From Candidatus Aenigmatarchaeota archaeon (GTDB taxonomy: Archaea; Aenigmatarchaeota; Aenigmatarchaeia; GW2011-AR5), in NCBI GenBank assembly GCA_016187335.1, contig JACPJW010000001.1:404170-468169 (forward strand): a stretch of 64,000 nt of DNA, read 5' to 3'. Below, piece by piece: positions 3,779 to 57,282 of the stretch. Position 1 is the stretch's first letter. Every line of letters starts with the position of its first letter. Under the pieces are notes generated by a model. The model worked only from the letters and a program-made list of their open reading frames with translations, searched no databases and was not told the origin of the DNA. Made by a program: the position numbers and the translations under genes.

Positions 3779-3804
3779 ATTTTTGATTAAACTTTTTAAA
3801 AAGT

Positions 3805-4947
3805 TCACCTGAACTTTCTCAGCTGCCCGCTTTTCTTGGCGGCTTCGTGCCTTTGTACCTTCCCGTATTTTTTCTTTATTTCCCGTTCCAGCTTGCCCAG
3901 AACATCCTGCGCAACGTCAAGAGGCTTCCAGCCCATTGAGTGAGACACGAAAAGCCCCAGCGGCGTGCCTATTCTCGCGCGCATCACATAGCGGATTTTC
4001 TTATCGCCACCGCCATGGTCGTTCTGCCTCTCTACATGAACAAAGAGATATTGTACGCTGTCCATCATCCTCCCGATTTTCTGGACAAATCTTGTTGTTG
4101 CCTCGTCCACGCCGGCAATCAGTTCGCTGCTTTCGCCGTGAAGCCCAGTGACTTGCACGTAAACCTGTTTTTTAGGGCCTGAAACGAGCAGTTCAAGGAT
4201 ATCCTTTGGGGTTATTATTCCCGGCTCGCCGTTCATGACGATAACTTCTTCGCTTTTCTGCAGTAAGTCCAAAGCCCTTTCCAGAGGAGAGTTTTCTTTC
4301 AGTATGGCAGCAGCATGCATGAAAGATTCCACGCCAGCACTTTCAGTGGACATCTTTTCGCTGGCGCCCCGCTCCTTTGTTTTTCCTCTCATCTCCATTT
4401 TTTCTTTTCCTTCGAGCAGCTTTATCATGTCCAGCGTCCCTACGACCCCGAGAACCTTTTGGCCGTCGATAACAGGGACGCGCGATACGTTTTTGTTGAA
4501 CATGATTTTTTTGACTTTCCCGGCATTGTCACCTTTCGACACGCACTCACACTTGACAGCAATATCCCCGCAGGTTTTCTTCGTGTTCATCAGTTTTGAT
4601 GCAACCTTGACAACATCATATTCGGAAACAATACCCACCAGATTCCCTTTGTCCACAACAGGAACAGCCCTTAATCCCGTGTTCAGTAGGAGTTCTATGA
4701 TTTTCTGCAAGTCATGCTCCGGCGAAGCAGTGGAAGTGCTCGTTACGTAGTTCTCAACCTTTGTTGACTGTATGTCTATGTCCTTTGTAACAATGTTTTT
4801 CAATTCAAGCAGCCCGAGAACATTCTTCCCTTCAACGACAGGAAGCCGGTGGATATTGTATTTTTTCATCTTGGCCAATGCCGTGTTCAATGTGTCGCCC
4901 CTTCCGCAGGTTATCACGTTTCTGGTCATGATTTCGCTTACTTTCAT
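3805..4947 (-). CDS. CBS-domain protein (tandem CBS pairs plus C-terminal domain)
   Basis: 380 aa; repeated CBS-like segments (RLPVV, RAVPVVD, RVPVID with hydrophobic cores). Confidence 0.7.
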   Translation of the reverse strand: MKVSEIMTRNVITCGRGDTLNTALAKMKKYNIHRLPVVEGKNVLGLLELKNIVTKDIDIQSTKVENYVTSTSTASPEHDLQKIIELLLNTGLRAVPVVDKGNLVGIVSEYDVVKVASKLMNTKKTCGDIAVKCECVSKGDNAGKVKKIMFNKNVSRVPVIDGQKVLGVVGTLDMIKLLEGKEKMEMRGKTKERGASEKMSTESAGVESFMHAAAILKENSPLERALDLLQKSEEVIVMNGEPGIITPKDILELLVSGPKKQVYVQVTGLHGESSELIAGVDEATTRFVQKIGRMMDSVQYLFVHVERQNDHGGGDKKIRYVMRARIGTPLGLFVSHSMGWKPLDVAQDVLGKLEREIKKKYGKVQRHEAAKKSGQLRKFR

Positions 4948-6335: not shown

Positions 6336-6944
6336 TCAAGGCTTATGTCTTGTAATAGCGTAGTAGGTCACGTCTCCTTCGTTATCCACAATCGCCCATA
6401 ACATCCTTGCTCGTATGTTGTGGGCAAGCCTGACAGAGCGCGAAAGTTCCTGGAACGACATGGTGAAATCCTCCGGCACCGAGAAAACTATCCATTTCGT
6501 GTGCTCTTTGGCGGATTTCGGCCCTTTCTTCAGCTGCACGCCCCTTTCATACACGCGGAAGTCGCAGCCGAACTTGAATCCTGTCCTGACAAGCAGCCCG
6601 CGCTCCCTGAGGTCTTCGTAAACGCGGTAGCGCTCCGTGAACCTTTTGTCCAGAGCAGAAGAATGCCTGAACAGCTCGTCGAATGTTATTTGTTTCTTGC
6701 TGCTGTCAAAGACCCTTATCCTGCCGCGCTTCAGCAGCAGGCACGCTTCTACCAGAGCCAGTTCAAGCCTGTCAGGAAGAATTTTGCCGTAATAGCCGGG
6801 CTCGTAAACGCTTTCAAAGTTTTTCCATGCAACTGCTTTGTTCTCTTCCAGCGTTGTATCCACAACTTCTTTGAAAGGCTCCGGCTCCACGTATTCCGGT
6901 CTATCCTCTTCAGAATCATGCTTTTTCTTGGACATTTTGAACAC
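6336..6944 (-). CDS. endA: tRNA-splicing endonuclease subunit
   Basis: 202 aa; GFKFGCDFRVYERG and EHTKW segments match the EndA catalytic-domain fold (Tyr/His/Lys region). Confidence 0.7.
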   Translation of the reverse strand: MFKMSKKKHDSEEDRPEYVEPEPFKEVVDTTLEENKAVAWKNFESVYEPGYYGKILPDRLELALVEACLLLKRGRIRVFDSSKKQITFDELFRHSSALDKRFTERYRVYEDLRERGLLVRTGFKFGCDFRVYERGVQLKKGPKSAKEHTKWIVFSVPEDFTMSFQELSRSVRLAHNIRARMLWAIVDNEGDVTYYAITRHKP

Positions 6945-7643: not shown

Positions 7644-7743
7644 TTCGCCGGGGCGATATTAATAGGTTGCCTTTAGAAAGCAGCAAAGAAAGCGTAATGC
7701 GGGTGTGATTTAACCCTTTTAGAAAAAGCGTCACGGAAAAAGA

Positions 7744-7980
7744 TGGGAAGGGAGGGATTTCCAGAACTTTTCATCGTTTTCCTCGAAGAACATCAGTTCT
7801 TCGGTATCTCGGAGAACTATCGTTCTCCGCAGATGATCGAACTTTTCTGAAAAGTTCGTTTGGACCCTCGACATTCCCGGCGTAGCACCAATCAAGTGCT
7901 ATGCTCCACGGTCTTCAGCCGTGTGCTCTCCCAGGCTTTGCCAACCGAAAAAATCATTCTCGGTTTTGAGCTACCTTCCC
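7744..7980 (-). tRNA. tRNA-Phe (anticodon GAA) with three putative introns (D-loop, variable loop, T-loop)
   Basis: Minus-strand acceptor GGGAAGG/CCTTCCC with discriminator A; D-stem GCTC/GAGC with AGCCUGGGA loop; anticodon arm CACGG-CUGAAGA-CCGTG; exons sum to about 73 nt; T-loop junction uncertain. Confidence 0.5.
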
Positions 7981-9431: not shown

Positions 9432-12146
9432 TTAATCCAGGAAATCGCCCTTCTTCAGCTTATTAGGAAGGTAGGTCTCGGACATGAACTTAAGGCCGCG
9501 GTGCGACAAAGCTTCTATCTCGGCTTTTATTCCTTTTTCTATCATCAGGTTGATTTCCTTCTTCCATCTCGGGTTCTTGCTAAACCACTCGTAGTTGAGT
9601 AGTTCCTTCGCGCGCTTTATGTCAACTTCCTTGCATTTTATTGTCGCTTTTTTCAGGTCATACTCAAATATATCCGATATAGTAAGACCTATGTATCTGG
9701 CTTCCGGTGTCGCAATCCGATCTGAGACGTGAGCTAGGCTTATGGATCCGGATTTGATAACTGAATAAATATAGAAGCCGTACGAATCACTGTCGCAGCA
9801 TACATATACAGGCAGCTTGTGATCTTGGTTCAGCCTTTGTATCAGCAGCCTTGTTCCGCGTGATGGCTGCCCGCCTGTGCCGATCAAAACGCACTTCTGT
9901 TTCTGCCAGAACTTGTCCTCATGAAGCCGCTCAAAGCCTGCGTTCTTCTCCACGACCAAGACAAAGTCCGCGTTGACTTTTTTGAAATCTATTTCATCCA
10001 CGGTGCTCGGTATGGACCATCCCCCGCTTCCGAGCTTTGACCAGTCTATGCTGTCGCCGCGGTCTTCAATAATAACGTTGCCGGCGACAATGCCCTTTCT
10101 GTCGGTGGTGAGGTGCAATTGCTCGCGCAGAACGTCTATAGCCACTTCTATGTCAACAATTATAGGGTCAGAATTATGTAGAATTATAAATCCATTACCA
10201 CCAATGAAATTCTCAGTAGGTTCGACTGAAAGATCAACTGTATATTCAGGAGTTGGAGCGTCATTTATTTCAACTATCTTGTCCCACATAATGTCACTAT
10301 TAGCTATGGTTTCAAGTTCGGATACCAGCTGTAAATCTGGAGAATACTTTTGTAACTGCATCAAGGCGTTATATAACACAGGTCTGCTTATCGATTCGTT
10401 TTTATTTTCTATATAACTCCATGAAAAGTGGTTCCATTCAACACGATCCTTACAGGACTTTCTGACTTTTTCTACCAATTTCCCTATGTTTGGTATCCTG
10501 TCAGAAGATACGTCGTGTTTCCGCGGCTTACTGAATCTTTTATCATTGATTATTTCAGCCATCAATTTTACATCTTCTCTATTACCTATTCTAATTTCAT
10601 ATGCGTTATGGTGATTAGGATTTTGGACGCTTCTTTTATAGCGATAAATTCTTGCAAAAATTCCAAGCCTAAGCAGTAAAAATACCAATCCGTTAGCCAG
10701 CTTTTCGCTAGTTGTGTGGTACCTTAATCTAAATTTTGGAAGAAAAGTACTACCGTCTCCAAGCATAAACGAGAAAAGAAACATCTGTATACAATTTTCA
10801 GGTGAATCAAGCAAAACACGCGGTATTTCTTTATTCCATGCTCTGCAAGGCTTATACCCAATAACATAAGTCAATATGTGACTCAAAGTATCGTAACCTA
10901 CATTTAGCTTATAAACTCCATCTTTACCTAAACGTATCTTTCCGCTTACACAGCTTTTACCAAATGATTTTTCAAAGCAAATCATAAACTGCTTGAGAAG
11001 CTCTGAAGATTTGTTAGAAATAGCTACATGGTATGATTTTCGTGGTTCAAAAAGTGAATGCGAGCCTTCGCTCAAAAGAAGCCCTAGTACAAATCCTAAA
11101 TTTTCATCTTTTTTTATTAAAGCGTTGTAATAGTTCTTTGCACCCCTTCTTCCAATTTTTATTTTAGGAAGCAGATCTGAAATATCAATTCCGGTCGTTT
11201 TTACGACTTTAATTGGAATTGTTTTCCAGTTAATCCAGTTGGCTTTAACGTCAGACCATACATTCTTGTATCCGAAGTCATTTGAAATATTTTTTAGCTT
11301 ATCATTACCTATAAGCCTGATTATTTCTTTTATCGTGTCTTTATCCGATTTTATGTAAAATTCTTTTAATACACTTTCAGGGCAATTTTCAATAAGCTTT
11401 TCTAAAATATTTATATGATCAGAATTAACACCGACTTCTATTTTTCTTGGGATGGCTATCCAGTCTCCTATCTTTAGTTCTGATGTTTTTATGGATACAG
11501 GTTTTCCTTCAGAATTTGTAAACAAGCTGTGAGATTTAGTTACTTTGACACGCCTGCCACTTGATGTGATTATTTCCTTTACAATGTTAGGCGGGTGTTT
11601 CATTACCATCAGAACTTTCTGCTCCTTAATCCTGTAATTTTCATCGAAAGCGCAAACCTTAATGTCGCCAACTAAAATCTTCTTTTTATTACCATCATCA
11701 TAAATAATTCTCCCAAATTTTTCAGCATGGTCTACGACTTCGCTTGCTTGAGCTATTCTGAGTTCATCGTTTATTCTTACCAACAAAGGTTCATCGGGGC
11801 ATACAGACTCGCTCTGCTCGTCAAAGGTATTCTCGTTGCTGTCCGGCAGTGTCCTTTTCAGGTTGTAGTACATGTCTCGGATGCTGGCATGGATTTTCTC
11901 ATCAATGAGCGATTTACAGAAAGCACCGACCATAAGCGTCTGCATGAACTTCTTGGAGTGCGCGACGTTGAAGTAATACCTTTTTGCTGTCTTGGTGCCA
12001 AGCCTGAGCTGGCCGGTTTTCCTGTCGTAAACTACGTTGGAAAGAGCGCGTATTGGTATCTCTATGTTCGGGTTCTCGCCTTTCTCTATGTCATGCACGA
12101 CTTTCTTGCCCAGAACATTCAGTTCCTTTCTTACGTCTTTTTCCAT
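9432..12146 (-). CDS. top6A: DNA topoisomerase VI subunit A (Spo11-like) interrupted by an intein
   Basis: 904 aa; extein N-part (IPIRALSNVVYD...RDMYY) and C-part (WSKLGSGGWSIPS, Toprim LIGTGGQPSRGTR) match Top6A; central 543 aa has intein/LAGLIDADG blocks. Confidence 0.85.
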   Translation of the reverse strand: MEKDVRKELNVLGKKVVHDIEKGENPNIEIPIRALSNVVYDRKTGQLRLGTKTAKRYYFNVAHSKKFMQTLMVGAFCKSLIDEKIHASIRDMYYNLKRTLPDSNENTFDEQSESVCPDEPLLVRINDELRIAQASEVVDHAEKFGRIIYDDGNKKKILVGDIKVCAFDENYRIKEQKVLMVMKHPPNIVKEIITSSGRRVKVTKSHSLFTNSEGKPVSIKTSELKIGDWIAIPRKIEVGVNSDHINILEKLIENCPESVLKEFYIKSDKDTIKEIIRLIGNDKLKNISNDFGYKNVWSDVKANWINWKTIPIKVVKTTGIDISDLLPKIKIGRRGAKNYYNALIKKDENLGFVLGLLLSEGSHSLFEPRKSYHVAISNKSSELLKQFMICFEKSFGKSCVSGKIRLGKDGVYKLNVGYDTLSHILTYVIGYKPCRAWNKEIPRVLLDSPENCIQMFLFSFMLGDGSTFLPKFRLRYHTTSEKLANGLVFLLLRLGIFARIYRYKRSVQNPNHHNAYEIRIGNREDVKLMAEIINDKRFSKPRKHDVSSDRIPNIGKLVEKVRKSCKDRVEWNHFSWSYIENKNESISRPVLYNALMQLQKYSPDLQLVSELETIANSDIMWDKIVEINDAPTPEYTVDLSVEPTENFIGGNGFIILHNSDPIIVDIEVAIDVLREQLHLTTDRKGIVAGNVIIEDRGDSIDWSKLGSGGWSIPSTVDEIDFKKVNADFVLVVEKNAGFERLHEDKFWQKQKCVLIGTGGQPSRGTRLLIQRLNQDHKLPVYVCCDSDSYGFYIYSVIKSGSISLAHVSDRIATPEARYIGLTISDIFEYDLKKATIKCKEVDIKRAKELLNYEWFSKNPRWKKEINLMIEKGIKAEIEALSHRGLKFMSETYLPNKLKKGDFLD
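10173..11801 (-). mobile_element. Intein with LAGLIDADG homing-endonuclease domain inside top6A
   Basis: Begins with Cys after ...DEQSESV, block B GRRVKVTKSHSLFT, LAGLIDADG-like LGFVLGLLLSEGS and FLFSFMLGDGS, ends GFIILHN followed by Ser; region is A/T-rich relative to exteins. Confidence 0.7.
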
Positions 12147-13837: not shown

Positions 13838-13921
13838 TATTCCGGACTCCTAAGGTTTGAAAGTCGCCGAAACTTCTCTGAAGTTTCGTGCGAAATGCTT
13901 TTGCCTGCAATGCATTTTATT

Positions 13922-15336: not shown

Positions 15337-15392
15337 GCGATGAAATTTGCTGTAAAGTATAAGAACACATGACGGATACATTTTTTTGACAG

Positions 15393-15473
15393 AACTTTTT
15401 CCTAAAAAGTTCTTTTTGATTAAACTTTTTCCTAAAAAGTTCTTTTTGATTAAACTTTTTCCTAAAAAGTTTA
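15393..15473. repeat. Tandem array (about 2.7 copies) of 30-bp unit AACTTTTTCCTAAAAAGTTCTTTTTGATTA
   Basis: Direct repeats read from sequence; each unit contains the palindrome AACTTTTT-CCT-AAAAAGTT; lies immediately upstream of the zinc-ribbon gene start. Confidence 0.85.
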
Positions 15474-16526
15474 GAAGAAGACCTTCCAGAACAACAGGCT
15501 CAATTCAAACTGATCGCCGCCAATTGATGAAAGGAGAGAGCTTTCCGAAAAAGACGGCGCCGGTGTTTTCTTGAAATTGTCCATTTTGTAATGTTCACCG
15601 GAAGCCCACATAAGCGCCGCCTTCGTAAGGTTCTTCGTCTCCTGCGCGCCCTGAGTGTCTTTTGCATAGTCGTATCCCGAAAACCACACGGTTCGCCCAT
15701 GGTTGTTCACAATGAACTGGTTTATCTTCACATAGGATATCTGGTTTCCTGGCGATGTTATTATAACGGACTTGTCCGTTACTTCAATCTGGTTTACGCC
15801 GCCGCCTGAAAATTCGCTGAATGCCGCGCTGGCGGGGTCTTTGCCAGTTAAGCCTCTGTAATATTTCGCTATCTTGTAAGAAACCTTTGAAGGCGTTACG
15901 GTGCTGTAAAATATTCCTTCGCCCCCGCCGCTCCCGGTCCACCTCAAATCAAAGACGCTGTTCATGAATCCGTCGCTTACCTGGTTTTCCGTCAGGTGCC
16001 CGAGCATGAATATTGTCCCGCCGCCGTCAAGGAAGCTGTTCAGCGCTGACATGTACGGATTGAGATTCTCATACCCGATTATGAAGGCAACGTCGGTCCG
16101 GGGGTTTATGTTGTTCAGGTTGTCGAGCCTCTGGATCCTCACGTCTATTTCCCTGTCCTTGTAGCCGAAGCGAAGAGGTGCAAGGAGAGATTCAAGGTCA
16201 TCTTTCTCTGTTTCACTGCAGAAGCATTCGACGTAAATTATGTCGTTGGGAATATCCCTGACTTCCAGCGAGAATTCTATGTTAGGGGGAAGGGTTTTCC
16301 TAAGGTCGTTGTTCAGCGAAGCTGCGTCATTGTTCTTCACATAGCCGGCAAGTTTGCCGCTTTTTTCCAAAGCAATAAGCGATTCCTTTGTCCTGGTGCT
16401 CAGAACCACGTCGTCCCACGAAGTCTGCTGCGTTGTGGGCAGGAAAAAATAGGATACTGAGGCTATGAGGATTATGGAAGCTATGATGGCTTCAAGCACC
16501 CTTATGAAACCTTTCATTATACCCAC
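15471..16526 (-). CDS. Pilin-like protein with class III (type IV pilin-like) signal peptide
   Basis: 351 aa; N-terminus MGIMKG-FIRVLEAIIASIILIASV (basic residues, Gly, hydrophobic helix). Confidence 0.5.
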   Translation of the reverse strand: MGIMKGFIRVLEAIIASIILIASVSYFFLPTTQQTSWDDVVLSTRTKESLIALEKSGKLAGYVKNNDAASLNNDLRKTLPPNIEFSLEVRDIPNDIIYVECFCSETEKDDLESLLAPLRFGYKDREIDVRIQRLDNLNNINPRTDVAFIIGYENLNPYMSALNSFLDGGGTIFMLGHLTENQVSDGFMNSVFDLRWTGSGGGEGIFYSTVTPSKVSYKIAKYYRGLTGKDPASAAFSEFSGGGVNQIEVTDKSVIITSPGNQISYVKINQFIVNNHGRTVWFSGYDYAKDTQGAQETKNLTKAALMWASGEHYKMDNFKKTPAPSFSESSLLSSIGGDQFELSLLFWKVFF

Positions 16527-21261: not shown

Positions 21262-21981
21262 TCAGATTAAGTCCAGATTTATGACGGTTTTTGTTATGAT
21301 CTTGCCGTTTTCTTCCGTTTCCGACGTGCCTTTGCTTTCAATTATGATTGAGTGGTCAAGGCCGGCGCTTTTGACCTGGTCTGAAGTGAGCACAAGAGAA
21401 TAAACCCTTATAGTCTGCGTTTTCAGCGGCACATATCGCAGCGTATAAGATGTCAGGTACTTGTTTTCGTCAAGCTTCACGCTCTTGACGCACAGGATGC
21501 CTGCGTCGTCAGAGCCCCATGCCCCTTCCGAAGCCGTGCACGTGCTGTTCTTCAGCGGTATCTCCGCGCCCGTGGCGTATATCGTCCCTTGCGTATCTGC
21601 GTCGAGCTGGATTACCCAGCCGTTCGGGCTGCTGTCTATTTTCACGATGCCTGACGCCGTGATTTTCAGCTGGTCTCGTCCGCCGGTGTTTGCAACTGTC
21701 TTTATCTTGCTGTCCAGGGTTTTCATGAACTGCTCGCTGCTCTGCAGCAGCGAGACGTCCTTGTTTTTCTGTATAAGGGGTATTCCCCAAAGATAGACGG
21801 ATCCCACGATGCCGATCAGTATCCCGCTCAGGAGTATCGCCGTGACAGCCTGTTCCTGGCCTTTAGAGGAGAAAAACCAAGGTTTTTCTCCCTCTACCCT
21901 CTTTTCCTTATTATTTTTTGATAGAACTTTTTTGTAAAAAGTTCTTCTCATTCCCTTATTAGAAATATTATTTGACATCAA
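21262..21981 (-). CDS. Pilin-like protein with class III signal peptide
   Basis: 239 aa; SSKGQEQAVTAILLSGILIGIVGSV; true start uncertain, an AACTTTTTT-AAAAAGTT palindrome sits in the first codons. Confidence 0.5.
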   Translation of the reverse strand: MMSNNISNKGMRRTFYKKVLSKNNKEKRVEGEKPWFFSSKGQEQAVTAILLSGILIGIVGSVYLWGIPLIQKNKDVSLLQSSEQFMKTLDSKIKTVANTGGRDQLKITASGIVKIDSSPNGWVIQLDADTQGTIYATGAEIPLKNSTCTASEGAWGSDDAGILCVKSVKLDENKYLTSYTLRYVPLKTQTIRVYSLVLTSDQVKSAGLDHSIIIESKGTSETEENGKIITKTVINLDLI

Positions 21982-22491: not shown

Positions 22492-22577
22492 GAACAATAC
22501 ACCACATATCCGTTTTGATAGAACTTTTTTGAAAAGTTCTCTTTTATTATATTTGCAAAAGCGGTATAAATAGGTTT

Positions 22578-23951: not shown

Positions 23952-25598
23952 TTACTCCATGTCCATGTCTTCGCCGCCGGGCATTCCGCCAGGGCCGCCT
24001 CTCGGCATGCCGCCGCCGGACTTTGACGTTATGACGTCGTCTATGCGCAGTATCATTTCCGCCGCTTCCGTTGCGGACTTGATGGCCTGCGTCTTTATCT
24101 TCAGCGGCTCGACGACGCCGTTCTTCTTCATATCCTCTACTTTTCCGTTGACAACATCTATGCCGTAAGCGGATTTTCCTTTGTCGTGCAGCGTCCTTAA
24201 CTCTACAAGAAGATCAATAGGATCGCGTCCAGTGCTTTCAGCCAGCGTTCTTGGAATTATTTCAACAGCCTCGGCAAACGAATTTATTGCCAGCTGTTCT
24301 CTTCCGCCGACGGATTCTGCGTATTCCCTGAGCTTGCGGGCGATCTCTATCTCTACGGCTCCGCCGCCGTAGACAACCTTGCCTACTTCCAGGGCAGAAA
24401 TAACACCCAGGACTGCGTCGTCCATTGCGCGCTTCGCCTCGTCAACAACATGCTCCGTTCCGCCGCGCACAAGAATGCTTACTGATTTAGGATCCTTGCA
24501 GTCGCGGACAAAGATCATCTCTTCGCCGGCAATCTTCTGCTCCTCAACTAATCCGGCATAGCCTAAATCATCCTTTGATATCTCTTCCAGGTTCGAAACG
24601 ATGTTGGCGCCCGTGGCTTTTGCCAGCTTTTCCATGTCGCTTTTCTTCACGCGCCTTGCAGCTATAGTGCCTTCCTTGGCAAGATAATGCTGCGCTAAAT
24701 CATCAATGCCTTTCTGGCAGAAAACAACATTGCATCCTGTCGCTGACACCTTCTTTACCATTTCCTTGAGCATCTTTGTTTCCTGCTCGAGAAACGCCTG
24801 AAGCTGGTCAGGTGATGTTATTCTTATTTCCGCGTTCGTTTCGGTTTCCTTTACCTCCAGAGCCACATCCAGCAGCACTATTTTCGCATCCTTGACGCGC
24901 TTTGGCATGTTAGGATGCACAACTTCCTTGTCAATGACAATTCCCTTTATCAGTTCCGTGTCGTCAATTGAGCCGCCCTGCTTCTTCTCTATTTTCACAT
25001 CGTCCTTGTCGATGACAACCTTGCCGTTGTCCTGTTCCGCGACCATCTTGACAGCTTCAACGGCTAATTTCGCCAGGGATTCCTTTGCCGCTTCGCCGCC
25101 CTTCCCTGTCATTGCTGTCATCGCTATTTTCTGCAGCATTTCCGTGTCATTAATGTCAATGTCTTCGCCTATTTCCTGCAAAACTTCCAGCGCTTTTGTC
25201 TTCGAAAGCCTGTAACCCCTTACGATCATCGTGGGATGTATTTCCTGCTCCAGAAGACCCTCTGCTTTCTTCAGCAATTCACCAGCAAGAATTACTGCCG
25301 TGGTCGTGCCGTCGCCGACCTCGTCTTCCTGCGTCTTCGCCACTTCAACAATCATCTTTGCGGCAGGATGCTCTATTTCCATGTCCTCCAGTATTGTCGC
25401 GCCGTCGTTGGTTATGGTGACGTCACCTATAGAATTAACAAGCATCTTGTCCATGCCGCGCGGGCCCAGCGTAGTCCTTACAGACTCAGCAACGGCTTTC
25501 GCTGCCATTATGTTGCGCGACTGCGCGTCCCTTCCAGTGTTCCTCAAAGTGCCTTCCGGCAGGATGAATATAGGCTGTCCGCCAAGCTGGTTCACCAT
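23952..25598 (-). CDS. ths: Thermosome subunit (group II chaperonin)
   Basis: 548 aa; [27 protein letters not shown] and C-terminal GGMPGG repeats. Confidence 0.95.
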
Positions 25599-25750
25599 TT
25601 CAAATACACCTCGTTAATAGAATTTCTTTCCATGCACGCTTTCATTTTTGACGCAACTTTTTCCTAAAAGTTGCCGTATACTTTCATGCACATACATAGA
25701 AGAAGCTAATCTTTAAAAGGGTTGCGGTGCGGCTTAGCGTGTCACACAAT

Positions 25751-27332: not shown

Positions 27333-27491
27333 GGGCCGGTAGCTCAGTGGTAGAGCACCTGTCTTATACGACGTGTTTTCTTAATTGGAAAAAGAAAACA
27401 TTGCTAAGCCAGCAGGGGGTCGAGAGTCCGATACAAACTTTTCCAAAAAGTTTGATCAAAAGGGAAAGTTGCGGAATCCTCTCCCGGCCCA
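27333..27491 (+). tRNA. tRNA-Ile (anticodon UAU) with anticodon-loop intron and T-loop intron
   Basis: GGGCCGG-TA-GCTC-AGTGGTA-GAGC-A-CCTGT-CTTATA then ~42-nt intron, A-GCAGG; 3' end CTCTC-CCGGCCC-A; exons sum to about 72 nt; T-loop junction ambiguous. Confidence 0.6.
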
Positions 27492-28827: not shown

Positions 28828-28940
28828 GGGCTTGTAGTCTAGAGACCCTTTAGAAAAAGCGTCTACGAAAAGGGTTGGAAAATGGTTATGACGTCGCCTT
28901 CACACGGCGAAGGTCGGCGGTTCGAATCCGCCCGAGCCCA
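28828..28940 (+). tRNA. tRNA-Val (anticodon CAC) with 40-nt D-loop intron
   Basis: GGGCTTG-TA-GTCT-AG [intron 28843-28882] TGGTTA-TGAC-G-TCGCC-TTCACAC-GGCGA-AGGTC-GGCGG-TTCGAAT-CCGCC-CGAGCCC-A; exons sum to 73 nt. Confidence 0.8.
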
Positions 28941-28993
28941 TAGCAACTTTCTGGAAAAAAGTTGCATTTAAGCATTACGATATTAGTGGAAAT

Positions 28994-33127: not shown

Positions 33128-34102
33128 ATGAAAGCCTTTGTCGTAAAATCGCCAATAGGCGTCTTCGCCTTCAGCGAAAGCGGCGAACTGGTTTACTACA
33201 GGGTATTCAGCAGCGATCCGCCAAAGGCGCTGCAGGAGTTTGAAAGCGTTATCGACAAAGACTTCATAGACGACCTGAAGGACTATGAATTAGCAGAAGA
33301 CAAGGGCGCGCAAATGATTCTCAGAAAGCACTTCCGGGAATATGCATTGTCTCTGGGCTTTGCAAAAAGCAGCGAGGAACTGAATAAATTTCTTTCTTCT
33401 TTTGCTGCGCTGCTCTCGCGCAAGAGGATGAAGCAGCAGATGAGTCGCGACAGGCTCATTATACAGGCATCCAACGCTTTGGAGGACATAAAGAAGACAG
33501 AAAACCTGCTTTCAGAGCGGTTCAGGGAATGGTACACCCTTCATTATCCCGAGCTGAAGAGCGTTAAAGCAGAAGATGTCATCAAATACGGCCCGCGCGA
33601 AGCGTTCCCCGATTTTAGGGAAAGCGTCGGCGTTGATCTGGCGGAAAACGATTTAGAAATAATCCTGGAGCAGGCAAAGACCCTGAAATCCGTGCAAGAG
33701 CACAGGAAAAGCCTGGAAAGGTATATCCGGAATGCCGCAAGGGAAGTGATGCCGAATTTTTCATCTCTTATTGAACCCTTTTTGGCAGCGCGCTTTCTTT
33801 CACTGGCCGGCTCTCTGGAAAAGCTGGCCAAGATGCCTGCCTCGACGCTGCAGCTGCTTGGCGCAGAGAAGGCCTTGTTCAGGCATCTCCGTGAGAAAGG
33901 AAAGTCGCCGAAATACGGCATCCTGTTTTTGGACACCCGCATCCATACTGCGCCTGACGAGCAAAGGGGCAAAATAGCCCGCGCCATATCGTCAAAACTT
34001 ATGCAGGCCGCGCGCATAGATTTTTACTCAGGCAGGGAAGAGCCGCGCCTGAAAGCAGAGCTTGGTCAAGAAATAAAGAAAATCAATGAGGAAAGGAAAT
34101 GA
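33128..34102 (+). CDS. nop5: Nop5 (Nop56/58) box C/D snoRNP protein
   Basis: 324 aa; NOSIC/Nop domain; immediately upstream of and overlapping fibrillarin. Confidence 0.8.
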   Translation: MKAFVVKSPIGVFAFSESGELVYYRVFSSDPPKALQEFESVIDKDFIDDLKDYELAEDKGAQMILRKHFREYALSLGFAKSSEELNKFLSSFAALLSRKRMKQQMSRDRLIIQASNALEDIKKTENLLSERFREWYTLHYPELKSVKAEDVIKYGPREAFPDFRESVGVDLAENDLEIILEQAKTLKSVQEHRKSLERYIRNAAREVMPNFSSLIEPFLAARFLSLAGSLEKLAKMPASTLQLLGAEKALFRHLREKGKSPKYGILFLDTRIHTAPDEQRGKIARAISSKLMQAARIDFYSGREEPRLKAELGQEIKKINEERK

Positions 34103-34749
34103 AAGAGATTTTTCCCGGCGTGTTCAGGTCAGGCAAAGACTTGCTTACTGTTAATTTAGTTCCCGGAAAGAGGGTCTACGGCGAAAAGCTGCTTGCCAAA
34201 GGCAGGCAGGAATTCAGGGAATGGGTCCCCCAGAGGAGCAAGCTTGCCGCAGCGATAATGAACGGGCTACAGAACATGCCGATGAAGCAGGGCAGCAGGA
34301 TACTCTATCTAGGCGCAGCATCAGGGACAACGCCGTCGCACGTGAGCGATATTGTTGGCCATGACGGAATTGTCTATGCCCTGGAATTCTCTGAACGCCC
34401 GTTCAGGTCACTGATAGAGCTGGCGCGAACCCGCAAGAACATTGCCCCGCTGCTTGCTGACGCGCGGAAGACAGAGGATTATTACTGGGTCGAGGCGTGC
34501 GACATTCTATATTGCGACATCGCGGACCCCCAGCAGACTGAGATTGCTATCCGCAATTTTGAAGAATTCATTGCCGAAGGTTTTCTTTTACTTTCAATAA
34601 AATCACAGAGCATCGACGTTGTCAAGGAGCCGCTGCGCGTTTACGAAGAGGAAAAAAGGAAATTAGAGAAAGCGGGATTTGACGTTCTTGAACTGATCGA
34701 CCTAGAGCCATACGAGGAAAAGCACTGCTTCATCGTAGCGAAGAAATAA
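34099..34749 (+). CDS. flpA: Fibrillarin (rRNA/tRNA 2'-O-methyltransferase)
   Basis: 216 aa; SAM-binding VLYLGAASGTTPSHVSD and conserved fibrillarin N-terminus. Confidence 0.9.
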   Translation: MKEIFPGVFRSGKDLLTVNLVPGKRVYGEKLLAKGRQEFREWVPQRSKLAAAIMNGLQNMPMKQGSRILYLGAASGTTPSHVSDIVGHDGIVYALEFSERPFRSLIELARTRKNIAPLLADARKTEDYYWVEACDILYCDIADPQQTEIAIRNFEEFIAEGFLLLSIKSQSIDVVKEPLRVYEEEKRKLEKAGFDVLELIDLEPYEEKHCFIVAKK

Positions 34750-35903: not shown

Positions 35904-38900
35904 TTACTTTATTTTCTTTATCTCTATACCTATTTTCCTGCCTTCAAAGTCCAGTTTTTCCCCTTCCGCCTTCGCGAACACGACCTTCGCCGCCCCCACT
36001 TCGTTCTTTATTTCTTTTTCCCATTTCTTCAGTTCCCCGGCCCCTTCTATTTTCAAGGCAATTTTGTCCATGACAACAAGCCCTGATTTCTTGCGCATAT
36101 CCTGCACTTTTCTGACAACCTCGCGGAGCAGGGCCTCTTTTTTCAGCTCGTCGGTGAGCAGCGTGTCCAGTTCCAGCTTGCCGCCGTCAAAGGGAACGCC
36201 ATTGTTCGTGTTTGCAAAAACAGCGGCTTTGACATTGCACATATTCTTTATTATTTCTGCAAAAGGCTTGAGATTCTCTTTGCTGTCCACTGTAAGCTTT
36301 GCCAGGGGCCACCTTATTTTTATGTTGCTTTCATGCCTTTGCGAGTTGGATGCTTCGACAAGGTTTTTTACGATATTCATGGCTTTCTCCGCCTTTGCGC
36401 TGATGTATTTTGAATCGTACTTAGGCCAGTCCCTGGTATGCACGGATTCCTTTTCGCCGAGGATTTCGAGGTTTATCTGCTCGGCGAGATACGGCGTTAT
36501 AGGCGCTAAAAGCTGCGATGTTTTTTCTGCTATCTCGTATAAGGTGTAAAAGGCCGCTTCCTTGTCTTTCCCTGAATACGCCGGCCATACGCGGTCCCGG
36601 ATCAGCTTTATGTACCACCTTGAAAAGTCGTTTACTAGGAAATCATGCAGCTCTGTTACGGCCTTGTGGCCGTTGTAGCTGCAGAAATGCTGGGTGCAGT
36701 TCTTTATGGTGGTGTTCAGGCGCGAAAGAATCCATTTGTCCTCTATATTCAGTTTTTTTGGCATTGAACCGCTTGACGCGTCGGTCTGTTTCGGTTTTGT
36801 TGCGTAGGTCTTCACGAAATTAAAGCTGTTTTCTATCACAATAAGAGACCTCGCAATGGCTTCAACGTCCGGCCACTTGAAGTAGAAGTCATCCCACGGC
36901 GCGCTTGACAGCAGATAGAAGCGAAGCACGTCCCGGCCGTATTTTTTTATAATGTCCTCCGGCTCGACAATATTTCCTTTGCTCTTTGACATTTTCACGC
37001 CGTGAGCGTCAAGTATGAAGCCGTGGAAAAGTATGTTCGTGAAGGGCTTCTCATCAAATGTTATTACCGACGTTATCAGCTCGGCGTTCCACCAGCCTCT
37101 GATTTGATCCGGGCCTTCTGTCTGGAAGTCGCTTGGCCACAGTTTCTTGAACAACGCCTTGTTTTTCGGGTAGCCGAGGGATGCCCATCCGGCAAGGCCG
37201 GCGTCAAACCAGACATCAAGGACATCGGCTATCCGTTTCATCGCAGAGCCGCACCTGCATTTCAAAAAAACGTTATCAATGTAAGGCCTGTGCAAATCAC
37301 GGGGTATTTCCGGCAATTCGTCAGCGGAGCCGATGACCTTGACGCTTTCGCATTTCTCGCATATCCATATCGGCAGCGGTATGCCCCAGTAGCGCTGCCT
37401 TGATATAGGCCAGTCGCCGAGGTTTTCAAGCCAGTTGTTGAACCGTTGCTTTGCCCATTCAGGGTACCAGTTCACATTCTTGTTTTCCTTGATGAGCTTG
37501 TCCCTTATCTTCGTCACGCGGAAGAACCACTGCGACACGGATATCAGCAGCAGGGGAGTGCTGCAGCGCCAGCATTGCGGGTAGTCGTGCGTTATCGTTT
37601 CCTCCTTCAGCAGCAGGTCTTTTTCCTTCAGCAGTTCAATTATTTTTTTGTCGCTTGCCTTGACAGGATTTCCAGCAAAAGCACCGCATTTCTCGTCAAA
37701 AGTGCCGTTGATTTTCACCGGAGATATTATGGGCAATTTGTTTTCCAGACCGACTTTGTAGTCCTCCTGTCCGTGCCCGGGGGCGGTGTGGACAAGCCCG
37801 GTGCCGTCTTCCATGCTCACGTACTGCTCTGAAAGCACAACCTTGTGCGCGCCTTTGAGCTGCTGCTGGAATGTAAAAATGTCCCGGAGCGGATGCTCGT
37901 ATTCTGTCCCAGCCAGCTTTTTTCCGGGAAACGTTTCCACAATGCTGAATGGCAGTCCGGCTTTCTTCATAACAGCTTCAAGAAGCGGCTTTGCCAGGAT
38001 AAGAAATTCAGTTCCACCAGAACTTTCCACCATTACCTTGACATATTCGTGCTTCGGATGCGCCATGATGCCTGTATTAGCTGGTAACGTCCACGGCGTT
38101 GTCGTCCATATGACCAGGAACACGTTTTCTTGTCCTTTCACCGGAAACTTAACATAAATAGAAGGGTCCTTGGCTTTGCTGTATTCTATTTCGTTGTACG
38201 CAACGGCTGTTTCGCAATTATGTGTCAAGAAGCCGTTAGTTATAAAGTTGTGATGAGTTTCAACTGCTATATCACATACTTTCCGTTTCCCCTTATATTT
38301 TATAGAATTTATTTCATCCCAAATAAATCCGTCTCTGAGGTCTTTTGCAGCATTTTTTAACCATGCATCGAATGCAGGGGTATATTTGGCAGCACGAACT
38401 GACTTAGACTTGCCATAAACCACATGCCTTACATAAAGTTCAGGTAAGTTAAGCATAATTGCGATTTTGCTGCAAGGGATCTTAGAATGTCTTAGTGATA
38501 AGATCCTACCTTTCAATTTTCTGTATTGTTTCTCAAGTGATTTTTTGTACAGAAGATAGCCCAAAACATGCGAAGCCCTGATTTTTCTGTATTTACAGTA
38601 CTCGTATCCTAAATACCGTATGAATTTAATGAGGTTGTAATCGTTGCAATCTATACTGATAGTGGTCTTCGATTTTTCTATTTTATTAACAATATTTCTT
38701 TCTGTTTTTATTTCTCCTGTCGATACCCCAAACTTATTGATAAGCGCGCATATCTGTTTTGCAAATTCCATCCCGTTTTCTTCTAGATGTCTATTTTTTG
38801 TAAGGTAAAGCCTCAGGCATTCAAATCCCTTTCCATATTTTCTGGGGCTTATTATCTGGAGTTCGCTTCCGAAGTAAGATGCCAAAAATTCCCTTGTTAA

Positions 38901-40421
38901 TTTTTTATTGGACTTTATCCATTTTGGCACAAATGTCTTTGTTTCCGTCTTTTTTCCTATAGGACAGCCTAGCGTTATAAGCAAAACAGCCAAAGACAAA
39001 GAATAACATCTCATGGATGTTGTAAATCCCTTTATTGCTCTGCCATTTACGACAGATTTAGTTGGCACGGTTGAAATATCCGAATGGCTAAAGCCAAGAA
39101 TCTTTAGGTCTTTTTGGATTTCTTTTAAATCTTCCTCTTTTCCGCAGAAATCTATGCCAAATACCGGGAATTTTCTGTTTTTAGATGTACGTACAACAAT
39201 AGATCCATCACCAAAAATATGACCTGCCAATCTGGCTAAAATAAATGATTTTGTAGATTTACTGTGAAGAGGTATCAGTTCTTTATCTTTCAATTCATTT
39301 ATTATAGAATCGTAGCGCGTAAACGTATTTACTTTTAAAATTTTTGCTACCCATGATTTTGAAACTCTTATTTTGAAGGCGTTTTGTATTTCTTTAATAA
39401 TTTTAGTATATGAATAGTTATTTTTTCTAAGTTCGGCAACAAAGTTCTTAATTTTAATTTTCGAATGACTTGTAAGGTCGTTAAATTTATGCAGATCTCT
39501 GAAAACTATATTTTCTAAGTTCTGCAAAGTAAACATTACATTATTCTCATTTACAAGAGCTTTGCCTGTTTCCGTAATTTCCGGCAGTCTGCTTTCCACA
39601 TTATTATATACGGCCACTTTGGTTCCTATTCTGAGCTTAGAAAGAGTCATCCATCCATCTTGCGTCCAGAACGGATGATCACTCGAAGCGATTAGTTTCT
39701 TTCCTGTTAGCGTTTTTACAAGAAATACATTATCTTCCAATTCCACATAGCCCAGAGGTTTTGCCGTAGTTAGAAGTTTAGAATTAGTATCAACAGCTAC
39801 AACCGTGTTGTGTTTCCAGCAGCCTTTCAGTTCTCCTATTTTTCTTGTTCCCCCTTCAACAAGAATAGTAGAATTAGGATCAACGCATCTCGGGCATACA
39901 TGCACCGGATAAAGACCCTTGTAGAGCAGTCCCTTGTCGTAAGCGGTCTTGAACGTGTGCCACGCGCCCTCTATGTACTCGTTGTTGTACGTTATGTAAG
40001 GGTTGTCCCAGTCCATCCACACGCCAAGATTCAGGAACTGGTTATTCATGACAGAAATGAACTGGCTGACGAACGCCCTGCATTCCTTGTTGAATCTCTC
40101 GACGCCTAGCCTTTCTATATCAGCCTTTGATTTTATCTCCAGTTTTTGCTCGACCTTGTTTTCTATCGGCAGCCCGTGGGTGTCGTAGCCCGGCTGGTCC
40201 CATACGTCGAAGCCGGACATGCGCCAGAATCGGATGTAGCTATCCTTCAATATTTTGTTCCAGGCAGTGCCTATGTGTATGTAGCCCGTGGCGTAAGGCG
40301 GGCCGTCAAGGAAGTAGAATTTCTTCTTTCCTTTTCTTTTTGTCTTGGCCTTCTGGTAAATGCCGTCTTTTGCCCAGAACTCGGCGATTTCTTCTTCTTT
40401 TTTCTTGCGGCTTTCTATCAT
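35904..40421 (-). CDS. ileS: Isoleucyl-tRNA synthetase interrupted by an intein
   Basis: 1505 aa; HIGH (YIHIGT), KMSKS (KMSKSKGN), WPISRQRYWGIPLP; 557-aa insertion between CPR and CETA of the zinc-binding region. Confidence 0.9.
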   Translation of the reverse strand: MIESRKKKEEEIAEFWAKDGIYQKAKTKRKGKKKFYFLDGPPYATGYIHIGTAWNKILKDSYIRFWRMSGFDVWDQPGYDTHGLPIENKVEQKLEIKSKADIERLGVERFNKECRAFVSQFISVMNNQFLNLGVWMDWDNPYITYNNEYIEGAWHTFKTAYDKGLLYKGLYPVHVCPRCVDPNSTILVEGGTRKIGELKGCWKHNTVVAVDTNSKLLTTAKPLGYVELEDNVFLVKTLTGKKLIASSDHPFWTQDGWMTLSKLRIGTKVAVYNNVESRLPEITETGKALVNENNVMFTLQNLENIVFRDLHKFNDLTSHSKIKIKNFVAELRKNNYSYTKIIKEIQNAFKIRVSKSWVAKILKVNTFTRYDSIINELKDKELIPLHSKSTKSFILARLAGHIFGDGSIVVRTSKNRKFPVFGIDFCGKEEDLKEIQKDLKILGFSHSDISTVPTKSVVNGRAIKGFTTSMRCYSLSLAVLLITLGCPIGKKTETKTFVPKWIKSNKKLTREFLASYFGSELQIISPRKYGKGFECLRLYLTKNRHLEENGMEFAKQICALINKFGVSTGEIKTERNIVNKIEKSKTTISIDCNDYNLIKFIRYLGYEYCKYRKIRASHVLGYLLYKKSLEKQYRKLKGRILSLRHSKIPCSKIAIMLNLPELYVRHVVYGKSKSVRAAKYTPAFDAWLKNAAKDLRDGFIWDEINSIKYKGKRKVCDIAVETHHNFITNGFLTHNCETAVAYNEIEYSKAKDPSIYVKFPVKGQENVFLVIWTTTPWTLPANTGIMAHPKHEYVKVMVESSGGTEFLILAKPLLEAVMKKAGLPFSIVETFPGKKLAGTEYEHPLRDIFTFQQQLKGAHKVVLSEQYVSMEDGTGLVHTAPGHGQEDYKVGLENKLPIISPVKINGTFDEKCGAFAGNPVKASDKKIIELLKEKDLLLKEETITHDYPQCWRCSTPLLLISVSQWFFRVTKIRDKLIKENKNVNWYPEWAKQRFNNWLENLGDWPISRQRYWGIPLPIWICEKCESVKVIGSADELPEIPRDLHRPYIDNVFLKCRCGSAMKRIADVLDVWFDAGLAGWASLGYPKNKALFKKLWPSDFQTEGPDQIRGWWNAELITSVITFDEKPFTNILFHGFILDAHGVKMSKSKGNIVEPEDIIKKYGRDVLRFYLLSSAPWDDFYFKWPDVEAIARSLIVIENSFNFVKTYATKPKQTDASSGSMPKKLNIEDKWILSRLNTTIKNCTQHFCSYNGHKAVTELHDFLVNDFSRWYIKLIRDRVWPAYSGKDKEAAFYTLYEIAEKTSQLLAPITPYLAEQINLEILGEKESVHTRDWPKYDSKYISAKAEKAMNIVKNLVEASNSQRHESNIKIRWPLAKLTVDSKENLKPFAEIIKNMCNVKAAVFANTNNGVPFDGGKLELDTLLTDELKKEALLREVVRKVQDMRKKSGLVVMDKIALKIEGAGELKKWEKEIKNEVGAAKVVFAKAEGEKLDFEGRKIGIEIKKIK
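38217..39887 (-). mobile_element. Intein with LAGLIDADG homing-endonuclease domain inside ileS
   Basis: Starts CVDPNSTILVEGG, contains ILARLAGHIFGDGSI, ends FLTHN followed by Cys; A/T-rich relative to exteins. Confidence 0.7.
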
Positions 40422-51228: not shown

Positions 51229-51492
51229 GCGCCCGTAGCTCAGCTTGGCAAACTTTGCTACTCCAAAGTTTGATCAAAAGAGGTCTGTGACGAAGTTTGA
51301 GCAAATAGAGCACTTCTCTCCTAGAGGTGAATTGAGCGCAACGGAAGACTGAAGTTTCTGAAGAAACTTCAGCCGGTTTTGTGCGATGATAATTTCCTGA
51401 AGTGAGGAAGGGGCCGCGCGTTCGAATGCACCCTTTCTTGGAAAGAAAGCGTGCACGGAAAGAAAAGGGTGCCGAATATCGCGCCGGGCGCG
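51229..51492 (+). tRNA. tRNA-Arg (anticodon CCU) with three introns
   Basis: Exons GCGCCCG-TA-GCTC-AGCTTGG / TAGAGC-A-CTTCT-CTCCTA / A-GGAAG-GGGCC-GCGCG-TTCGAAT / CGCGC-CGGGCGC-G; introns about 51249-51305, 51324-51404, 51428-51479; exons sum to 74 nt. Confidence 0.8.
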
Positions 51493-51495
51493 CTT

Positions 51496-57022: not shown

Positions 57023-57282
57023 GCCGGGATACCGAAATCAGGTCTCTCAAGATAAGAGTGAAGAAATTCACGATGATTGCCTTTCATTGGTAAACGGGCC
57101 AGTGCAGTTCCGCTTCAAAGAAGCGGTGCGGCCAACCTTGAGAGCTGGTGCGCCTTCGGCGCGTGGGGGTTCAAAGCACCCTTTCTTTTTGCAAAAGAAA
57201 GCGTGCGCGGAAAGAAAAGCAACTTTTCAGAAAAGTTGCATCAAAAATAAAGGAAAGGGCTGTGAAATTCCCTCTCCCGGCG
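57023..57282 (+). tRNA. Class II tRNA, tentatively tRNA-Ser (UGA), with three putative introns
   Basis: Acceptor GCCGGGA/TCCCGGC, discriminator G; anticodon arm CCAGT [intron] CTTGAGA-GCTGG; variable arm GCGCC-TTC-GGCGC; T-arm GGGGG-TTCAAA [~93-nt intron] T-CCCTC; exons sum to about 87 nt. Confidence 0.5.

Follow-up and report, generated by a model that had tools for sequence, protein, structure and literature searches.

Repetitive extragenic palindromes (REPs) of bacteria, tagged by GTAG or CGTC (PMC3733652), are the closest described systems to the repeat analysed here in a stretch of 64 kb of archaeal DNA (the window; ~46% G+C, ~14.5% non-coding). Like bacterial REPs (PMC3733652), this repeat is a short palindrome of 20–40 bp that bears a conserved tag on just one of its ends. 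It occurs in many extragenic copies, single and clustered, many of them downstream of ORFs and in the gaps that separate unidirectional or convergent genes. It is probably transcribed as RNA hairpins, as REPs are, and its abundance likewise varies among relatives. However, its host belongs to the DPANN archaea, its stem is rich in A/T and has a T-tract and an A-tract beside the loop, and the tag is (A/G)TCAAAA, neither GTAG nor CGTC being present. The repeat also differs in being found in tRNA introns as part of the splice motif, and no RAYT (Y1/HUH) transposase was seen among the ~60 ORFs of the window.

A second point of comparison is archaeal 'intron transposition' (Fujishima et al. 2010, reviewed in PMC4090602), in which every new site requires a BHB and intron gain comes late in a lineage. 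Both traits recur in the introns described below. Nevertheless, the families in that review (PMC4090602) are from Thermoproteales, whereas ours are from Aenigmarchaeota, and the intron core found here is also extragenic, occurring in UTRs, at gene boundaries, in tRNA flanks and in a tandem array. The existence of extragenic copies hints at a possible pool of donors. Earlier work on DPANN archaea characterised heavily disrupted tRNA genes by EndA type and intron position (PMC5829648). The tRNA genes of the window similarly contain multiple non-canonical introns each and are missed by standard finders, but that study describes no hairpin-plus-tail module common to introns and intergenic DNA.

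MITEs resemble the repeat in being short and non-coding, in their presence or absence among relatives and in the assembly breaks associated with them. Unlike MITEs, the unit is only ~30 nt long, lacks terminal inverted repeats enclosing an internal sequence and has no matching transposase. The gained intron and the array described below have no direct repeats at their flanks, and no target-site duplication was found there. Repeats of class 1 CRISPR systems are comparable in their ~30-nt unit and in a hairpin followed by an 8-nt A-rich 3' handle; the present module, in contrast, is dispersed and has neither spacers nor nearby cas genes. Literature searches with the exact motif sequences returned nothing relevant, and the literature on DPANN and Aenigmarchaeota tRNA introns and palindromes gave no account of a hairpin-plus-tail module. 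That a REP-like tagged hairpin also forms the core of BHB introns is new.

Anatomy and setting of the hairpin repeat

Pattern searches of the window detected 13 copies of the hairpin NN-AACTTTT / AAAAGTT-NN, usually with a 3-nt loop (Table 1). Ten are exact matches to AACTTTT-N(0-20)-AAAAGTT, against 0.02 expected from dinucleotide shuffles of the window, and a relaxed pattern added the hairpins at 13871, 28945 and 51251. The number of copies is thus not explained by A/T content, a source that the original prediction had wanted checked, and a composition artefact is ruled out. All hairpin positions listed in that prediction proved correct, and each is indeed a hairpin; those at 13868-13888 and 28943-28965 are variants, the former without the T/A tract and the tail, the latter with ATTTAAGC where the tail would be expected. 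The two outermost stem pairs, beyond AAC/GTT, are complementary in 11 of the 13 copies and comprise six different dinucleotides (binomial P = 4e-12), so the stem is reckoned at 9–10 bp.

A tail, (A/G)TCAAAA, follows the hairpin after 0–2 nt in 10 of the 13 copies. Because it stands at one side of the palindrome, the module has an orientation. Perfect hairpins followed by this tail number nine in the window (0.22 expected by chance), and all nine belong to the AACTTTT/AAAAGTT family. Compared with shuffled sequences, the single unit of the thermosome leader has an RNA folding z-score of -3.7 and the array one of -3.1. Rfam 15, searched at gathering and at permissive thresholds, gave no family match at the copies in the window and in 30 related loci.

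Table 1. Copies of the hairpin module in the window, with their positions and main traits.
Feature	Position	Strand	Details
Single copy	3781..3805	-	Stem 7, loop 2, followed by TAATCAAAAA
T-loop (59/60) intron of tRNA 7980-7744	7758..7858	-	Hairpin CGAACTTTTCAGAAAAGTTCG (7858-7838); variant tail ATCATCT
Diverged variant hairpin CGAAACTTCTCTGAAGTTTCG (CGAAACTTCAGAGAAGTTTCG)	13868..13888	-	31 nt upstream of top6B ATG
Tandem array	15383..15473	-	Hairpins 15451-15473, 15421-15443 and 15391-15413, each followed by (A/G)TCAAAAA
Copy, stem 10, followed by ATCAAAAAA	21914..21945	-	Within 5' end of pilin-like ORF 21262-21954
Copy, stem 9, followed by ATCAAAAC	22513..22540	-	Between PadR gene stop (22578) and next ORF ATG (22490)
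Thermosome 5' leader copy, GCAACTTTTAGGAAAAAGTTGC followed by GTCAAAAA	25645..25674	-	47 nt upstream of ATG
45-nt T-loop (59/60) intron of tRNA-Ile(UAU) 27333-27491	27433..27477	+	BHB fold; clean splice
Hairpin GCAACTTTCTGGAAAAAAGTTGC	28943..28972	+	2 nt after tRNA 28828-28940
56-nt D-loop intron of tRNA-Arg(CCU) 51229-51493	51249..51304	+	Hairpin CAAACTTTG..CAAAGTTTG; tail ATCAAAAG; distal arm GAAGTTTG
T-loop (59/60) intron of tRNA 57023-57282	57175..57268	+	Module 57219-57247 nested in intron of the 'first' palindrome family

The tandem array noticed in the original prediction is a perfect 30-bp unit, which TRF places at 15393-15471 (period 30, 2.6 copies, 100% identity), with stems of 10, 8 and 10 bp. 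Its first hairpin overlaps the TAA stop of the pilin-like ORF 15471-16526, and its end lies 47 nt ahead of the conserved NMD3 start. Across the window, 12 of the 13 copies are non-coding (P = 4e-8 over 11 independent loci). The copy at 3781..3805 occupies a 26-bp gap between a CBS-domain gene and a class II aaRS gene that converge, and the start of its hairpin is overlapped by the TGA stop of ORF 3805-4947. The copy at 22513..22540 is, like the thermosome one, situated in a 5' leader, and TATA-like boxes lie 10–30 nt upstream of it; the thermosome gene itself is found at 23952-25598 on the minus strand, and the hairpin at 28943..28972 is 29 nt ahead of the ATG of the diphosphomevalonate decarboxylase gene.

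All ten tail-bearing copies of the window, at eight loci, are co-oriented with the local genes or tRNAs. Their orientation switches at ~28 kb together with gene strand and skew, so gene orientation is inseparable from the direction of replication in this window. Co-orientation was also complete in an 8.3-kb metagenome contig, L115 (seven out of seven copies); there, four hairpins overlap a stop codon, and 0–30 nt separate the tail from the next ATG. The placement beside start codons that had been proposed for the family describes some copies, but stop codons and convergent gaps are at least as frequent. Over 175 modules, the distance from tail to ORF start showed no peak or preferred spacing, and a leaderless promoter was rejected as a general reading on this ground. 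The right end of a TnpB/IS200 element was also considered and rejected: the ORFs that end at the motif encode diverse housekeeping or viral proteins, not transposases.

Several other features of the window were noted in passing. Cumulative GC skew has its minimum at ~27–28 kb, where gene strand turns from minus to plus, and this has the appearance of a replication origin or terminus. The window showed no Orc1/Cdc6 gene. Inteins are present in Top6A (9432-12146, with a LAGLIDADG domain) and in a 1505-aa class I aaRS (35904-40421), both with a low G+C of ~0.37. The ORF at 46534-48327 joins PIN and KH domains to a secretion-type ATPase, and might accordingly encode an RNA-directed nuclease/ATPase.

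tRNA introns that contain the repeat

ARAGORN with default settings found no tRNA in the window and Rfam only three, although at least nine tRNA genes are present, several of them interrupted two or three times, in the D-loop, the anticodon loop and the T-loop (59/60). The copies attributed to tRNA introns in the original prediction do lie in four real introns, at D-loop and T-loop 59/60 positions. The BHB layout, two 3-nt bulges about a 4-bp helix between flanking helices, concerns these four copies only and was seen in the MFE folds of two of them (below); by inspection, the flanks of intergenic copies contain no such 4-bp helix and bulges. Excision at the sites predicted from the BHB yielded clean cloverleaf tRNA-Arg(CCU) 51229-51493 and tRNA-Ile(UAU) 27333-27491 in ARAGORN. 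In tRNAs 7980-7744 (minus strand) and 57023-57282, the acceptor and T-stem halves match across the insert. Splicing the T-loop intron alone from tRNAs 57023 and 7980 gave no ARAGORN match, because additional introns are still present.

The module holds a constant place in these introns. In every intron copy, its 5' arm starts 1–2 nt past the 5' splice site and adjoins the 5' splice bulge. This arm has two possible partners, the adjacent (proximal) 3' arm or a distal 3' arm, the latter directly preceding the 4-nt strand of the central BHB helix. In the predicted folds, the distal 3' arm is the partner, and together with the 5' arm it makes up the outer helix of the BHB. In tRNA-Ile(UAU), the order is 5' arm CAAACTTTTCC, proximal 3' arm AAAAAGTTTG, tail ATCAAAAG, distal 3' arm GGAAAGTTG and the 4-nt BHB strand CGGA, and the MFE fold of 27415-27478 makes the BHB with the distal arm. 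The same holds for the intron at 7758..7858, which has its distal arm, GAAAAGTTC, at 7772-7764. The MFE fold of 7745-7870 uses this arm and consists of a helix, a 3-nt bulge, a 4-bp helix, a 3-nt bulge and a further helix (-51.1 kcal/mol, z = -6.7). An EndA splicing endonuclease gene is encoded in the window at 6336-6944. We also considered split tRNA halves lying side by side with a promoter in the intron, an idea that was dropped because the predicted start site falls within the distal arm.

A common core is shared by introns in different tRNAs and at different positions, and relatives lack an intron of this kind in orthologous tRNAs, as in the transposed tRNA intron families. The intron cores at 27434 and 51249 have CAAAC..GTTTG and ATCAAAAG in common, and those at 7838 and 57219 have ACTTTTCAGAAAAGT in common, which is also found in a canonical intron of the Aenigmarchaeota contig L008. 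This intron, at position 37/38 of a tRNA-Ser, has a 5' arm, a proximal 3' arm, the tail, a filler and a distal 3' arm. Many tRNA introns of metagenomic contigs likewise begin with the module; most motif-bearing tRNA introns of other contigs are in the sense orientation, with the module at the 5' splice site.

The tRNA genes show further peculiarities. Another palindrome family, called the 'first', CCCTTT(T)..AAAAAGCGT-N-ACGGAAA(A/G), is present at 28845, 51430-51474, 57175-57218, 59505, 59582, 60312 and 60500, and antisense at 7716. Its layout is alike, a 5' arm being followed by a proximal 3' arm that is only partial and then by the tail and a distal arm, and it makes D-loop and T-loop introns; a fragment lies at 25630-25645, after the thermosome copy, and contig L110 contains units of both families in tandem. 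The three introns of tRNA-Arg(CCU) 51229-51493 include one of ~95 nt in the anticodon loop with C/D-box-like GCGATGATAA and CCTGAAG, and genes for Nop5 and fibrillarin are located at 33128-34749. tRNA 7980-7744 (minus strand) lacks the 20 nt TGCGTTTAAGCGCAGCTCAA that hold the UAA anticodon loop in its counterpart on contig L001 (6141-6267), and what remains is a CACGG-CTGAAGA-CCGTG arm and a long variable arm. This gene may represent another isoacceptor, carry yet a further disruption or be a pseudogene. The 5' ends of tRNAs 8521, 7980, 27333, 51229 and 57023 are directly preceded by (C/T)AT and have a TATA-like box at about -35 to -28.

Conservation and turnover among relatives

Syntenic loci of relatives were retrieved through thermosome homologues. 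The closest species representative in a scan of GTDB genome contigs was L001, a groundwater MAG of Aenigmatarchaeota with 59% identity on NMD3. At 82–91% thermosome identity, the copy in the thermosome leader is kept in L254, L248 and L249, with ATCAAAA in all three. It is almost identical to the window copy in L254; in L248, the outer pairs have changed from GC..GC to CA..TG, a double compensatory change, and in L249 the stem is replaced by CCTTTCTT/AAGAAAGG. At this one orthologous site, the stem sequence thus turns over (GCAAC.., CAAAC.., CCTTTCTT..) while pairing and tail stay, and the compensatory changes indicate constraint. Separately, a conserved 18-mer, ATGTGCATG(A/G)AAGTATAC, lies at 25675-25692 (minus strand) just upstream of the leader hairpin. 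It also occurs in L248, L249, L254 and L255 and, inverted, in L252 and L250, and is a candidate cis-regulatory (perhaps heat-shock) site distinct from the hairpin family.

Similar behaviour was seen in four hot-spring strains of an unrelated lineage, in which a pilin-like gene is preceded by 2 to 3.4 tandem units. In an orthologous unit of these strains, GCTTTT/AAAAGC has changed to GCCTTT/AAAGGC by way of a U.G intermediate on the sense strand. Mixed metagenome loci also contain imperfect copies, in which G.T (7) and A.C (8) mismatches are similarly frequent, so there is no general strand-specific wobble signal. L248 has a comparable copy at the same place in its pilin-like ORF as the one at 21914..21945, the N-termini being alignable, and L253 and L254 have degenerate counterparts of the 28943 hairpin, with ATCAAG.

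Other copies come and go. The array is missing at the orthologous site of L001, L248, L249 and L250, and the hairpin at 13868..13888 is missing in L248, L249 and L250. The 45-nt T-loop intron is missing from the orthologous tRNA-Ile(UAU) of L249 and L254, in which the T-arm is uninterrupted. The absence of the array and of this intron in relatives identifies them as gains in the lineage of the window. The counterpart of tRNA 7980-7744 in L001 has no T-loop intron, and a module lies 4 nt past its 3' end. Copy density is 13 per 64 kb (~0.2/kb) in the window against about 5 per 108 kb (~0.05/kb) in related loci. Exact-match short-read (Logan) contigs from groundwater runs end inside copies, L002 at 15422 and L245 at 27462. 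The original suggestion of a miniature mobile palindrome consequently holds in an evolutionary sense, given the gains of the array and the 45-nt intron, the contig breaks and the variation in unit number, but no transposase was found among the ~60 ORFs of the window, and no target-site duplication was seen.

Metagenome and viral scans with a 21-base pattern had mixed bacterial, archaeal and viral contigs among the matches listed. The AT-rich viral ones among these look compositional, and homology of the bacterial and viral contig matches to the archaeal module is uncertain, so these scans were given no weight as a sign of universality. Bacterial contigs L039, L057, L073, L067, L051, L090 and others contain a composite of a GC-rich hairpin and CCCC-NN-AAACTTTTGAAAAAGTTTGATCAAAACTTT, near fucI, mnmG, spoVD and gspE, often within long foldbacks and with weak scores in a miRNA-precursor model; it is apparently an undescribed repeat.

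Proposed action in RNA and competing explanations

What the sequences themselves show is the anatomy and orientation of the module, its non-coding placement, the BHB geometry, the compensatory change at conserved sites and the lineage-specific gains. We infer that the module most likely acts in RNA, and the function and mode of spread proposed here are to be read in the same way. The reading that we prefer, with a probability of roughly 45%, is that of a ~30-nt family, a hairpin with a single-stranded (A/G)UCAAAA tail, that is transcribed, constrained in structure and duplicating, and that supplies new BHB introns. Modules would lie in transcribed but untranslated stretches: mRNA leaders, intercistronic and post-stop spacers, tRNA trailers and tRNA introns. 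There, a stable stem-loop of 9–10 bp, selected for pairing rather than sequence, would display the conserved A-rich tail to a putative factor, whose recognition of the tail would probably mark or protect RNA ends and processing sites in the manner of bacterial REP hairpins. In pre-tRNA, the 5' arm, coming right after the 5' splice bulge, would serve as one strand of the intron-side outer BHB helix. It would pair with the second, distal copy of the 3' arm, and the resulting BHB would be cut by the splicing endonuclease. The family may grow by tandem duplication and by appearance at new non-coding sites, some of which would become new spliceable tRNA introns. This pattern matches that of a REP-like tagged hairpin (PMC3733652), which would be transcribed, structure-constrained and able to multiply. 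No binding protein or mobilising enzyme for the module was identified among the ~60 ORFs of the window, and the proximal 3' arm, which in the introns competes with the splicing-competent pairing, is not explained by an RNA-level module.

Several of the same observations would also suit a purely selfish REP- or MITE-like element, moved as single-stranded DNA by a HUH or tyrosine transposase encoded elsewhere in the genome and surviving, without host function, only at safe places such as gene 3' ends and introns. The tail or its complement, TTGAT, would then be a cleavage or target tag; tags of the TTGAT/TCAA type are used by IS200/IS605-family enzymes. Lineage-specific gains, an about five-fold difference in abundance among relatives, assembly breaks at copies and tandem arrays of varying unit number all favour such an element, as does the REP-like architecture of a small palindrome tagged at one end and placed between unidirectional and convergent ORFs (PMC3733652). 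We nevertheless consider it rather unlikely: no transposase or HUH domain occurs among the ~60 ORFs of the window, no target-site duplications were seen, the thermosome-leader copy has been kept with compensatory changes across relatives of 82–91% identity, and the intron hairpin always begins at the splice bulge, which random insertion would not lead one to expect. Fainter still are the prospects of a punctuation mark in DNA, that is, a terminator combined with a promoter, in which the T- and A-runs would be two-way oligo-T terminators and a BRE/TATA-like box and the tail would act for the downstream gene as its proximal promoter or initiator. The core CTTTTTAGG/CTTTTTAAAAAG does resemble the local TATA consensus CTTTTTAARR, found at -31 to -23 of many ATGs, a resemblance that lends a DNA-level role some probability. 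Two copies of L115 have an ATG 28–30 nt past the first T, a leaderless-promoter geometry, ORFs of both strands end at module edges, and T4–T6 runs are present. Against this stand the lack of a peak of ORF starts after the tail, the copy between convergent genes, where no promoter is needed, and the separate, conserved TATA boxes of the NMD3 and thermosome genes. Sense T5–T6 copies within tRNA introns of other lineages are likewise at odds with efficient termination or initiation, and TBP/TFB need no covariation of the outer stem.

Less likely again is the shared regulatory site of the original prediction, if this is taken as a sequence-specific, double-stranded operator for a dimeric transcription factor, with a regulon such as heat shock in view of the thermosome copy. 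A palindrome does lie upstream of several genes, thermosome included, but stem sequences are swapped between orthologous sites with pairing maintained. The repeat is moreover found within tRNA introns, behind stop codons and in convergent gaps, its gene neighbours have no functional relation, and the separate 18-mer beside the thermosome copy is a better operator candidate. Since stems change while pairing and tail persist, such an operator is very unlikely. We give almost no credence to units akin to CRISPR repeats, solitary or spacer-less, in which a hairpin with an 8-nt handle ending in AAAG is cut by a Cas6-type nuclease. The 30-nt unit, a hairpin and then AUCAAAAAG, has the layout of a class 1 repeat. 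However, copies are dispersed, some of them in introns, no Rfam CRISPR-DR match was obtained at them, and no cas domains were detected among the ~60 ORFs of the window. In the array, the units abut without spacers, and the original prediction was right that it is not a CRISPR array.

A bolder extension of the RNA-level module, tentative and more doubtful than the module itself, is that an extragenic REP-like hairpin repeat inserts or copies itself into tRNA genes and is a vehicle of archaeal tRNA intron gain. Such an insertion would be tolerated because its own arms supply the outer BHB helix, so that it can become a spliceable intron. REP-like tagged hairpins occur in DPANN archaea. Many tRNA genes of such genomes escape standard finders; default ARAGORN missed all of the at least nine present here. 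In the window, one short module serves as an extragenic repeat and also makes up the core of D-loop, T-loop and anticodon-loop introns. Sequenced relatives bracket the date of one intron gain, and this provides a concrete donor–recipient system for the gain of archaeal BHB introns at new positions. If true, the proposal that the repeat is a vehicle would account for 'intron transposition' and for the extreme fragmentation of DPANN tRNA genes.
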